Shown: positions 21,001-31,321 of the stretch, piece by piece
How the letters are laid out: each line of letters starts with the position of its first letter
Position numbering within the stretch: the stretch's first letter is position 1
Assembly (NCBI RefSeq): GCF_056746865.1
Contig: NZ_CM163382.1
Direction: 5' to 3' (one strand)
DNA: 64,000 nucleotides
Program-made: the position numbers

Positions 21001-24000
21001 TTCCCGCTGTATATCCATATACTACACCAGCTAATGAAAAGAATATGAAAATGAAAGCCACTATTGATTTAAGAAATGGAGAATTGCTGATTAATCCTGT
21101 TTGTTGATTACGTAAGATTCCATCTTCAGGAATAACCAGAATGGCAACAATAACAGATAGTAGAAGTACAGATAAAAAGGACAGCATTAACGCTTTTTTC
21201 TCAACTGCTGTAACATCAGATGAATTACGAATTGACTGTTCATCCTGATTGAACCCTCCACCCTTGTATTTCCCTAACTGTGGTTCAACTATTTTTTCTG
21301 TTATCAGGTACCCCATGAGTGTTATAAAAAATGTACTGACAAACATAAAATACCAGTTGGATTCAGCCCCTACAATATAATCAGATGATACAATTTGCGC
21401 TGCTTGCTGGGTGATTCCTGACAAGAGCGGATCGATTGTACCTAATACTAAATTTGCTGAATAGCCACCCGAGACTCCCGCAAAAGCAGCAGCAAGCCCG
21501 GCCAAGGGATGTCTTCCCAGAGAATGAAAAAGTATTGCCGAAAGTGGTATTAAAACGACATAGCCAAGTTCTGAAGCCATGTTGGACATGATACCGGCAA
21601 AGACAACAGCTATAGTTGTTACTTTTGCAGGGGCTTTTGTCACAATAAGACGAAGGGTTGCTGAAATTAACCCGGACCGTTCTGCAATACCAACACCAAG
21701 AAGAGAAACCAGAACAGTGCCCAGTGGTGCAAATCCCGTAAAATTAGTAACCAGATTCGAAAGAATTTTACGAACTCCATCTGCATCCAGTAAACTTACA
21801 ATATAAATAATACCATCATCATTCCGGCCTTTAGCTCCAGGTGGTCTTGGGTCTGGGGCGCTAATATTAAAATATTGTCCAATCATCGAAACTACAATTA
21901 AGGAAATTGTTAATATTATGAACAGGATGACGGGATGAGGAAGTGCATTGCCAAGCCATTCTACTGTTCTCAGGAAACGTCTTTCTCTTTTTGTTATCAT
22001 TATTCCTCCTTTTCGGATTTTTTAAGTATCGATAAGTTTATCTCTCAGCATACATGTTGAACAAAATATCTTAAACAATAAAATATATTGTTTCTCCCTT
22101 TTCATGCATCTAATTATATTTTTGAAGTAATCTGTGCTGATTGCATTAAAATAAACAATATGGAAAGGTTATTTCATAATACCTATAATAAATATTTTTG
22201 TTCGGTTTTTGGTATATAAATAATTGACATGCAGCATATATAATAAAATTATGAAAAATTAATTAATATATCTTTTACAATGTATCATTATTTTTTCAAC
22301 GTTCTCTTTGGTATTTTGTGATTAACATCACACGAATAAAGGAGTTTGTGAAAAATTAACATGAATAAATCCTGTACCATCGTTGGACTCTCCCTCCAAA
22401 AGTTGGACATCCAACTGATTAAGGTTAGTTTTTATGGCAAAGCCAAAATATTTTCTCTAAACCGAATAAGCTGTAGTTAATCATTATATTGCCGGACACG
22501 ATGGTACACGTCGTACCGCTGAACGTTTTGGTGTTGAAGAAACATCAGAGCGATGCTGGGTCAAGGGCTGGCAACTCCACGGTATTGATGGTATTACATG
22601 GCAAAATGACCGCGGCTCTCCTGAGTTTCGACTGACAGTTGTCCTGAAGGTTTGAGTGAAGAACTTACCATGCGCTAGGCCACTACACAGTTTAATATAT
22701 CAAATGAAACCATTATCTGGCACTGGGTGAAGGTTTACAAAGATACTGGTGAAGAAGGACTTATGAACATAAAACCAGGCCGGAGCAAGGACATGACAAA
22801 ACTGTCACGAACGGCGCAAAAGTGGCTCTTCCTTGGATGTATCTCTATATTTTCATACATCTGTTATCACTTAACCTGTTACTGTCCTTCAAACGCAGGA
22901 GATTCAGGGGGCCAGTCTAACCGCTAAGAACATGTTCCCGAAAATTGAGATAAACACGTTATGACAGCAACGTAAAATAAAACAGCGTTTTTTAGTCATA
23001 ATGAACATGTAGAGTCCGTTTGTTCATACTCTGTGATTATCTCCATACGTTCATCTCTGGCGCTGCCAGATAGCGTTTTCGTTCTTACAGTCAATGCGCA
23101 CCCGATACTGAATATCGGCTTTCTTCCCCCGGGCGGTGAGATGCACTGTGACTAAATTATCACCTTTACTTACCAGCTCACGAAGATTCACCCAGACAAC
23201 AGGATGCTGCTGACTGAAGATCACCTAGTCATCTTTCCAGTGAAGCACCTGTTTCTGGAGATAGTCCCGTTTGACGCTGGCTGCAACAGCCGATGATTCC
23301 TGCCCTTCACATCGTGGAAAACTGACGGTTCTGTTTTTATCAGTAGCCAGTGATGATACACAAATACCGAAGGTGAGCAGAATTGAAGAGAGTGTTTTGT
23401 TTATTTACAGAACCCCATCATGGATAGCTCATTGTATTATTACTTTACATTTTAACAACATAAAATATCACTTTCAGAAGCAACAATCACATAACTTCTT
23501 ATCCATTATTAATCACCTTATACAACGGGAGCATCGCCGCGCCGCATGACGCACTCTGTGCTCCCATCGAAGAGGCAGCTAACTTCACTCTGGGGCGGTT
23601 GGGATCGAGGCAGGCTTCCATCAGTTGATTCAGTTCCTGCACCAGACGACTGATAATCGGTTTCGGCATCGCGCCACCGAGTACGATGATTTGCGGGTCT
23701 ACCCACTGCACACAGCTGAAGAGCGTCTGCTCCACCTGGCCACGACAGCGTTCAAACCAGCTTTCCAGCAGTGGGTGCTGCCCGGCTATCAGCTCCGGTA
23801 GCTTAGTTTCACTGAATCCTTCACGCTCCAGTGTGGCAAGCAAATCCTTATACGACGGGCGCGGTGTACCGGATGGAAACGCCATCCCGACTTCACCGGC
23901 ATTGCAGAACCCGCCGCGTAGCATTTTATTCCCGGAGATAATACCCGCGCCGATACCGTAGCCAAGGTCGATAAAGGTTAGATCGCTGTACGCATTCCAT

Positions 24001-30000: not shown

Positions 30001-31321
30001 AGCAACCTACCCGGTGCTTGCGCCAAGACTATCTGAATTAAAGGAGCTCGATGGCCGTTCGCTAATGCTCCACGCAGGAGGTGATAATCATGATGACCAT
30101 CCTGAACCTCTAGGTGGCGGTGGTGCAAGAATTGCCTGTGGTATCATCCCATAATCAATCAGGTAAGGGATATCCTCCCTTACCCTTAATCTTCCCTGGC
30201 TGCATGTGCATATCTTTCAGTTACTGTGAGATACCTGTATTACGGTGTCTTTTTAGCTCACAGAAATATCAGACAGCCCGTTTCAGTGTTTTATTACCTT
30301 AATCTTTTTACGGCATTCTTCAGCTCTTGCGCATGCTATTTTTTCACCTGTTTCATAACATTGCTGGCAGCCTAATCCAAATTTCATCGCCATATCATAA
30401 CCTTCCCGAAAACCTCGGAACCACGCGTTACGAAGGTATTCATCATATTCCCCGCAGTCAATAATAACCATTTTATTTTCATGGGATTTTCCGGTATTCT
30501 CACTCATTTTCGATACCTCAATGCTTACAACAGAAAAGTATACTTTTACGAAGTTCGCCTTTGCAGGACTATATAAAGTTATCACTGGATGCAAGAGCCG
30601 GAAATCCTGTATATCAGGATCAACTTTGTAATTCAATAACATATTATCCAGTGAAAAAGTAAGTATATTTAAGCTGGGGAAGGAGAAGGGGGACTTGATT
30701 TGATATTTTCATCAATAATATTATTTTTCCTCCTCCATTATTCATTCAGACCTGGTTCCGGGCGTAATTCCGATTTCTCTGTTGAAGCGATGCATTTATA
30801 TTTAAATATTCACCTGTCATTGAATTTTATTTGAAATAGGAGAAAATCTCCTCCTGTACTACAGATAACCCGGAATGTTCCTCGAAAGAAAATTCTGGCG
30901 CAGAATTCACGCCCGGTTCTGTTCAACATCATGCAGGATAACGATACCGAAACGTTAAACTCTGGCAATTCTCGTGTTATACACAGGCAGGAGTGATTAC
31001 TACGGTAAGAATTGCTGAAAAGGGGAGAACACTGAAGGCCTTATTCGCGAAGAATAAAGGAGACATTTCATGTAAATTATTATCAGAGATAACCTTCTCC
31101 AGGCGCTTTTGTTCGCTTCCTGAATTGCTACCTGATACATATTTACGGGATGCCAGCCTGGTGACTATAACTCCGAAAAGACCGATTATTGTATTGCGTG
31201 CATCCGGCATGTTTACAATGTACGCTGGTATCTAACGGAGTCTGACACAGATGCACGCAGGTGTATATTTTAACGTAATTATCCGGAAAGAACAGTATAT
31301 TTTAATGCGGGAGTTGCATGA

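Follow-up and report, generated by a model that had tools for sequence, protein, structure and literature searches.

In an island of Escherichia coli, a gene for a predicted periplasmic Cu,Zn superoxide dismutase (sodC) stands directly behind the genes of an ATP-binding cassette (ABC) importer, and the locus raises the question of whether the two belong together or have only come to lie next to each other. It was analysed within a stretch of 64,000 nt of contig NZ_CM163382.1 (assembly GCF_056746865.1), referred to below as the window and to which all coordinates refer. The initial annotation described seven genes, namely a ROK-family regulator and a glycerophosphodiester phosphodiesterase (GDPD) on the minus strand and a four-gene importer followed by sodC on the plus strand, all of which were found intact and where it had placed them. 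The meaningful link that it implied between sodC and the GDPD-ABC genes finds no support, in view of their unlike origin and composition, of 61 related transporter loci none of which carries sodC, of the derived nature of the joint between the two parts and of the loss of part or all of the transporter module in most carriers. The locus very probably consists of two unrelated horizontally acquired pieces standing side by side, a phage-type sodC cassette and a six-gene module, their adjacency being an accident of island assembly.

The sodC gene (29630-30154, plus strand) is intact and encodes a Cu,Zn superoxide dismutase that is predicted to be periplasmic, belongs to the SodC-F type of prophages and keeps all catalytic residues. 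Its product matches the Sod_Cu profile (PF00080; 6.2e-32, 111 bits versus 28.9), the NCBIfam SodC equivalog NF007628 (218 bits, cutoff 165) and PHROG 1975, a "superoxide dismutase precursor" of the category "moron" (2.8e-89). When aligned with five reference SodCs, the copper ligands (H67, H69, H92 and H148), the zinc ligands (H92, H101, H110 and D113), the disulfide C74-C170 and the catalytic R167 are invariant, the role of each residue being assigned by the established numbering of the family. As read from the sequence, the N-terminus begins with MKRK, continues with a hydrophobic core and ends with YAA|T, as in SodC-F, in which cleavage was predicted between residues 20 and 21 (PMC2569942). 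The nearest solved structure is that of Salmonella SodCI (1eqw, 6d52; 1e-64). By analogy with its characterised relatives, the island protein would have superoxide dismutase activity, probably as a stable dimer, and Cys16 may provide part of it with a lipid anchor.

Whether this is an additional gene or the one that every strain carries was addressed by its location and by population counts in a collection of 5426 complete E. coli genomes. In K-12 the core sodC lies between ydhK and ydhF; it is present in 5425 of the 5426 genomes and the island allele in 125, and hence at least 124 of these 125 carry both. The status of extra copy rests on this count, the region of strain AR_0085 having been inspected by synteny and corresponding to fec/fim (KpLE2-like). 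The initial annotation had proposed an extra sodC on horizontally acquired DNA and had named, as the contrary case, a gene that would be the only sodC of the strain at the conserved chromosomal position. The extra copy is borne out: the gene is not at ydhK-sodC-ydhF, the core gene is near-universal and the island allele is of a phage-associated type. That it might be the ordinary chromosomal sodC, or else an inactive relic, is suggested by the generic annotation "sodC" alone and can practically be dismissed, since its product has 59.5% identity to the core SodC, its open reading frame is intact with every catalytic residue present, and the identical protein recurs in six contexts.

Sequence comparisons further place the island gene with those of prophages. 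Over the full length, its product displays 79% amino acid identity to the SodC of an Stx2a phage, 60% to SodCIII of Fels-1 and 59.5% to SodCI of Gifsy-2; for the mature proteins the values are 82.5% to SodC-F, 65.6% to SodCIII, 66.2% to SodCI and 59.5% to the core SodC. A neighbour-joining tree against core and prophage proteins, as the initial annotation had called for, locates it among the SodC-F-like proteins of E. coli (bootstrap 0.6-0.76 for this clade). At the DNA level, the island gene and the core gene are too divergent for a cross-match, and identity to the sodC-F genes of O157 is 76.6%, indicating that the island gene is not a recent copy of the latter. DNA homology to phage and plasmid sodC is limited to about 29621-30195, reaching from the Shine-Dalgarno sequence through the gene to a GC-rich hairpin. 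This hairpin of 9 bp (30162..30184, plus strand) keeps its position in the phage, plasmid and island copies, with homology stopping at about 30194.

Other alleles of the SodC-F-like clade are found on plasmids of about 100 kb or beside fimbrial operons, so that the clade as a whole behaves as a mobile accessory gene. Among viral contigs, no SodC is closer than 82% to the island protein. In phages, sodC is flanked by J and the tail assembly genes; the island gene has no such prophage location, its neighbours being the ABC transporter, a hypothetical gene and remnants of insertion sequences (IS) without any PHROG match. Of the phage surroundings nothing but the native 5' intergenic region persists, and this in the S51-type context alone. 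From these sequence data, the sodC cassette (29566 to about 30194) is best read as descending from a moron, that is, a phage-carried extra gene, of a lambdoid prophage.

The other part of the locus is a module of six genes. The ROK-family transcriptional regulator (23499-24611, minus strand) combines an N-terminal winged helix (HTH_24, 1.2e-4, residues 13-56) with a ROK domain (Pfam ROK, 3.7e-24, residues 93-242), which is the architecture of ROK-family repressors, and is 95% identical to its orthologue in Salmonella diarizonae. Its matches to the NagC and Mlc equivalogs are weak and far under the cutoffs, the first half alone of the Pfam ROK profile aligns to it, and no CxCGxxGC(x)E zinc motif occurs in its translation, in which the equivalent stretch (GGFCNAGEVGMAF) has one Cys. 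It appears to represent a divergent subgroup conserved with this transporter. The adjoining GDPD gene (24627-25457, minus strand) encodes a cytoplasmic, UgpQ-like enzyme (PF03009; 7.5e-27, 95 bits versus a threshold of 23.6) that matches GDPDs of the PDB at 2.5e-22. Its translation displays the catalytic motifs H18-R19, PEN26-28 (HR..PENT), E45-x-D47 and H60 and no signal peptide. With 107 bits against the NCBIfam UgpQ equivalog PRK09454 (cutoff 264), it is a GDPD but not UgpQ itself.

The importer genes are transcribed in the opposite direction, from an ABC ATPase of PotA/UgpC/PhnT-like type (25673-26740 according to the RefSeq start, with a longer open reading frame from 25658; plus strand; ABC_tran, 3.6e-36), through two permeases (26737-27603 and 27600-28436, both plus strand; BPD_transp_1, 8.1e-14 and 1.5e-12, respectively), to a periplasmic substrate-binding protein (SBP; 28458-29534, plus strand; SBP_bac_8, 4.9e-31). 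The best NCBIfam matches of the ATPase are PhnT2, UgpC and PotA and those of the permeases are PotB-like and PotC-like, respectively, all under the cutoffs. An ATPase, two permeases and an SBP thus occur in one operon, as in binding-protein-dependent ABC importers. The two operons are separated by a control region of 215 bp (25458..25672) with a GC content of 0.251, in which 92% of the alignment columns are identical among E. coli, Salmonella and Klebsiella. It contains three copies of a TAAATTTAA-type motif, with TAAATTTA arms that are inverted and repeated. The TAAATTTAA-type repeats are candidate ROK operators, the region would hold both candidate promoters and the ROK protein is probably a repressor of both divergent operons.

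What the transporter imports was approached through its SBP. Neither a sequence search of the PDB, which returned no close solved relative, nor Foldseek identified a ligand. For the AlphaFold model of the SBP (pLDDT 90), Foldseek ranked iron-, sugar-phosphate-, polyamine- and phosphonate-binding proteins on top, together with thiamine binders, at 13-18% identity, and the model would place the protein in the FbpA/AfuA/PotD/PhnS structural cluster. The PDB search also yielded weak matches (E about 0.003-0.005) to 202-residue chains named "superoxide dismutase" (9twa, 9tw9), which are probably due to chance. The substrate is most likely an organic phosphodiester. Many of the invariant residues of the SBP family are Trp, Tyr, Asp, Glu or Arg, a pattern that, as a guess, would fit an amine-bearing diester such as glycerophosphocholine or glycerophosphoethanolamine. 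In some Vibrio species (e.g. Vibrio coralliilyticus, L024 1636-9386), the place of the GDPD gene beside the transporter is taken by genes for a 2H-phosphodiesterase and a phosphomannomutase-type enzyme, and the ROK gene lies downstream; these neighbours hint at a phosphodiester-linked sugar or polyol.

Several lines of evidence indicate that the module and sodC have separate origins. From the ROK gene to 22 bp past the SBP gene, the module forms a single homology block (23508..29556) with 92.3% nucleotide identity to two loci of Salmonella enterica (L002 and L003), the match stopping exactly at these coordinates, and about 86% identity to a chromosomal locus of Klebsiella (L005). In the Salmonella island the module is located between dnd genes and a relaxase/integrase pair, and sodC is absent from both this island and the Klebsiella locus. 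A scan with one genome per species detected the transporter at 61 loci in Enterobacterales, Pasteurellaceae, Vibrionaceae and a few others; gene order is kept in 56-60 of them, a divergent GDPD gene is present at 35 and a ROK gene at 39, and a Cu,Zn superoxide dismutase gene within 8 kb of the transporter at none. Composition differs as well: the module has 56.5% GC and 66-80% GC at third codon positions (GC3), against 48% and 35%, respectively, for sodC. Separate origins follow from the module-only relatives that lack sodC, the lack of sodC at all 61 loci and this contrast in GC3.

These data also bear on the idea of a functional partnership, in which the transporter would supply something that SodC needs, e.g. 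copper or zinc, within a single metal-superoxide dismutase system. The direct contact of sodC with the transporter genes invites it, as does the presence of the iron-binding proteins HitA, FbpA and SfuA among the nearest sequence or fold matches of the SBP. The likeness of the SBP to these proteins is nevertheless at fold level and is common to binders of sugar phosphates, polyamines, thiamine and phosphonates; across species the transporter keeps company with a GDPD and with a regulator of the type associated with sugars, never with sodC; and sodC, the composition of which points to another source, persists where the module is gone. A partnership of this kind is very improbable.

The stop codon of the SBP gene and the start codon of sodC are 95 bp apart, on the same strand, and within this spacer a recombination joint can be located at 29557..29565: homology to Salmonella stops at 29556, and identity to the sodC cassette in its native contexts (E. 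coli S51 and XDL) begins at 29566. In these native contexts, which also include Salmonella enterica, sodC adjoins dptFGH or an IS and the match with the window begins at 29566. The 80 nt upstream of the equivalent position in S51, as in XDL and Salmonella, are similar to the leaders of sodC in phages and plasmids (z = 8-12, 0 of 500 shuffles), showing that the native cassette carried the whole phage leader. The equivalent 80 nt of the window are the tail of the SBP gene and bear no resemblance to phage leaders (z about 0). The joint is therefore the derived state, as the native, phage-like 5' region of sodC is truncated at 29566: the module was joined to sodC later, at 29557-29566, which removed most of the native leader. 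Joining by recombination with deletion of that leader makes the adjacency a historical accident.

What is left of the leader (29566..29629, plus strand) includes the Shine-Dalgarno sequence GAGGG and the palindromes CTGTT-N7-AACAG and CTGTTAACAG, and is 100% identical in all contexts. This retained part of about 65 bp displays weak and inconsistent similarity to phage leaders (p varying by phage between 0.003 and 0.45), and a scan of viral contigs gave no exact match to it. Inspection of the CTGTT/AACAG repeats by eye raised the possibility of LexA-like or PhoP-like sites, which was abandoned on account of their unsuitable spacing. In the lost part, a 21-mer (ATAGTCACATTCAATAACTAT, with the inverted ends ATAGT/ACTAT) is identical between the native leader of S51 (L092, about 4968-4988) and a viral contig (L089, upstream of sodC); it is missing from the window owing to the joint and may be a regulatory site.

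As to where the pieces met, sodC adjoins dptFGH in S51 (L092 1-5589) and in Salmonella (L093), and the module of the Salmonella island (L002 1-2089) is found near dndB and a PAPS-reductase-like gene. Islands with dnd/dpt genes (DNA phosphorothioation) may be the place of the encounter. The possibility that sodC always stands behind a co-oriented gene and is read through everywhere was ruled out, dptF being upstream and divergent in both S51 and Salmonella.

The subsequent fate of the two pieces was followed by applying junction-specific probes to the 125 genomes with the island allele. The native junction was found in 75 and the transporter junction in 70; these add up to 145, so that at least 20 genomes hold both junctions and therefore two accessory copies of sodC. 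One example is NZ_CP033635.1, in which the copies are located at 2612688 and 5196119 and which, with the core gene, has three sodC genes, as in O157. The complete module is present in only 22 genomes, and 48 of the 70 with the transporter junction lack a complete module yet have an intact sodC. In APEC O2-211 and MIN9 the module is reduced to the SBP gene alone, in EC17CM6 to 83 bp beside a truncated IS66, and on six plasmids from E. coli and E. albertii, most of them from poultry, to 102 bp of the SBP tail. This tail and sodC form a piece of 924 bp (window 29455-30378; L016 3253-4176, L017 6001-6924) that is 100% identical on all six plasmids, with a microhomology of 10 bp (AGCCCACGGT) at its left joint. 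Five of the six were typed as conjugative; the two that were examined carry IncF replicons and have the piece next to RelE/ParE-type toxin-antitoxin genes. Throughout, sodC is intact in every context examined, the identical protein (WP_000823671.1) being encoded in six of the contexts examined in E. coli and E. albertii, with a near-identical variant in S51 (WP_021547712.1). The sodC cassette is thus mobile.

The truncated leader leaves room for another explanation, namely that in losing its promoter at the joint sodC became the fifth and last gene of the ROK-repressed ABC operon, to be induced by a host-derived phosphodiester. The SBP gene and sodC are co-oriented across their short gap, in which folding analysis detected no stable structure or terminator (z = -0.02), hairpins occurring only after sodC; the joint has deleted a conserved phage-like upstream region that contains the hexamer TATCAT in addition to the 21-mer; and no convincing sigma-70 promoter is found within the remaining 64 bp. 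Since there is no terminator and the conserved leader is removed, sodC may be read through from the transporter operon. The promoter scans weigh little, in that they returned no usable sigma-70 promoter either in the SBP-sodC spacer or in the native leader of S51, and scans for a consensus are weak evidence for or against. In addition, the 48 genomes without a complete module that retain an intact sodC, and the plasmid piece in which sodC is preceded by merely 102 bp of SBP tail, speak against a dependence on the operon. Such a capture of sodC by the operon is an unlikely, though not negligible, alternative. If true, it would mean that a periplasmic superoxide defence is switched on by a host-derived product of lipid breakdown, and that a metabolic operon has, in nature, seized control of a phage virulence gene and coupled nutrient sensing to superoxide defence.

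Some of the same observations count against two independent pieces that were brought together by accident. With no terminator or stable hairpin in the 95-bp gap between two genes of the same strand, co-transcription is possible, and the two parts may not be independently regulated here. Bootstrap values of 0.6-0.76, obtained from 155 aligned columns, give the SodC-F-like clade only moderate support. Activity, oligomeric state and infection phenotype would be extrapolations from a protein that is 82.5% identical in its mature part, and the retention of sodC across contexts could reflect hitch-hiking rather than selection. Finally, the nearest solved SBPs are at most 18% identical, and an organic phosphodiester is a putative substrate.

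With two unrelated pieces as the preferred reading, each would work on its own. SodC would be exported by the Sec pathway, loaded with copper and zinc, and would dismutate superoxide in the periplasm, where it would supplement the product of the universal core gene. By analogy with SodC-F and SodCI, the source of superoxide would be external, e.g. the NADPH oxidase of phagocytes. For prophage-type SodC, a link with resistance to reactive oxygen has been published in both E. coli O157 and Salmonella (PMC2569942), and a role of the island gene in resistance to the oxidative burst may be proposed from this likeness. The importer, in turn, would bring in an organic phosphodiester to be cleaved by the cytoplasmic GDPD, and the ROK protein would hold both divergent operons off, through the AT-rich control region and its TAAATTTAA repeats, until an inducer is present. 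The module and sodC could each function, and be lost, independently.

The surroundings of the locus agree with the accessory DNA near autotransporter genes that had been recognised at the outset. A chromosomal island of E. coli AR_0085 is 99.99% identical to window 15683-44694; this island is IS-rich and, besides a carbamate-kinase/FdrA operon, encodes an S6/SPATE autotransporter, an AbgT transporter and a YadA-like adhesin. The stretch of 8 kb around the module and sodC is complete in only 20 of the 5426 genomes, and both a SPATE and a YadA-like autotransporter are encoded nearby, together with IS elements. The former (16254-20129) is an S6-family protein of 1291 aa with no specific NCBIfam name; a place in the published TagB/TagC island was ruled out, as the gene is not located there, and the protein was left unnamed. 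The YadA-like autotransporter is encoded at 47656-49476. Immediately after sodC, a gene for a hypothetical protein of 74 aa (WP_024210520.1; 30283..30507, minus strand), with no Pfam, NCBIfam or PHROG match, accompanies sodC in islands on the chromosomes of E. coli and Salmonella (L093) and is truncated at 30378 in the plasmid copies. Further downstream are a LysR gene (32749-33807) and, at 34066-41182, an ankyrin-repeat gene followed by a DUF2877/FdrA/DUF1116/hypothetical/carbamate-kinase operon. Genes typical of an integrative-island backbone, encoding two YagK/YfjJ-domain proteins and a DUF3987 protein, occur at 52862-58545; no tRNA gene was found anywhere in the 64 kb.

The left end of the window (1-15815) is a separate, chromosomally integrated resistance region, 99.8% identical to stretches of many E. 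coli chromosomes, with a dGTPase-like gene (2247-3500), floR (7158-8372) and tet(A) (8972-10246). It meets the island at about 15683-15815, and in none of the complete E. coli genomes of the collection are the two joined.

Literature searches for the island sodC or for the ROK-GDPD-ABC module returned nothing specific. Overall, the island sodC represents a familiar type of accessory virulence gene in an accidental neighbourhood and not a new system or mechanism. In Salmonella, extra periplasmic superoxide dismutases of phage type are recognised contributors to fitness, and those of E. coli O157 have been studied as well. In the present case the sodC unit has left the prophage, and about 2% of the complete E. 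coli genomes now carry it, many of them from poultry and human isolates. The same allele also occurs in Salmonella and, in E. coli and E. albertii, on conjugative IncF plasmids. This spread makes it a reasonable candidate marker or fitness gene in avian and extraintestinal E. coli. The pair formed by the native-leader junction and the transporter-tail junction offers a simple natural experiment on the re-wiring of a transferred gene. The module is of interest in its own right, being conserved across Enterobacterales, Pasteurellaceae and Vibrionaceae with a substrate that appears uncharacterised.

When compared with known transport systems, the module is closest in design to UgpBAEC-UgpQ of E. 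coli, with which it shares an ABC importer accompanied by a cytoplasmic UgpQ-like GDPD and an ATPase that scores well against the UgpC model. It differs from Ugp in that its SBP belongs to SBP_bac_8 and to the FbpA-PotD-PhnS cluster and is not UgpB-like, its permeases are PotB/PotC-like, the ATPase gene comes first, a ROK regulator is encoded alongside and all NCBIfam scores are under the cutoffs. With neither a UgpB-type SBP nor UgpA/UgpE-type permeases, and with no Ugp model passing its cutoff, the module does not qualify as a Ugp glycerophosphodiester transporter. The sugar-phosphate importers AfuABC and VcA0625 have SBPs in the same structural cluster (Foldseek 4r73, 8x1a) and are a precedent for the uptake of organic phosphates through FbpA-like binding proteins in gut pathogens. 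Their SBPs are only 13-18% identical to that of the module, a GDPD or ROK partner is not documented for them in the searches made, and the comparison yielded no evidence that the ligand of the module is a sugar phosphate.

Among superoxide dismutases, the core SodC of E. coli (b1646), which is monomeric and RpoS-dependent, belongs to the same family as the island protein and has the same catalytic residues, but differs from it at many sites that the island protein has in common with those of prophages and Salmonella phages (e.g. YGLLFTP versus KGLEFSP). SodCI (Gifsy-2) and SodCIII (Fels-1) of Salmonella are phage-borne accessory Cu,Zn enzymes of the same broad clade and the model case of an extra sodC that acts in virulence; their genes differ from the island gene in lying between tail genes of intact prophages and in having unrelated upstream regions, and the mature proteins are about 66% identical to that of the island. 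The closest characterised proteins are SodC-F1 and SodC-F2 of the lambdoid prophages of E. coli O157:H7 (D'Orazio et al. 2008, PMC2569942), which are dimeric, more active and more stable than the core SodC, protease-resistant, expressed independently of RpoS and partly membrane-associated; sodC-F-like extra copies in other E. coli strains had already been noted in that work (PMC2569942). SodC-F and the island protein have in common their length class and the layout of the putative signal peptide, in which a Cys precedes the G-Y-A-A cleavage site, and both genes form a unit of roughly 575 bp (Shine-Dalgarno sequence, gene and hairpin) that is supplementary to the core sodC. Unlike SodC-F, the island protein has the putative lipobox TSSC instead of AASC, and its gene is found outside any prophage, without flanking tail genes; it resides on IncF plasmids and in a pathogenicity island rich in IS, with its native 5' region replaced in the window by the tail of an ABC operon.

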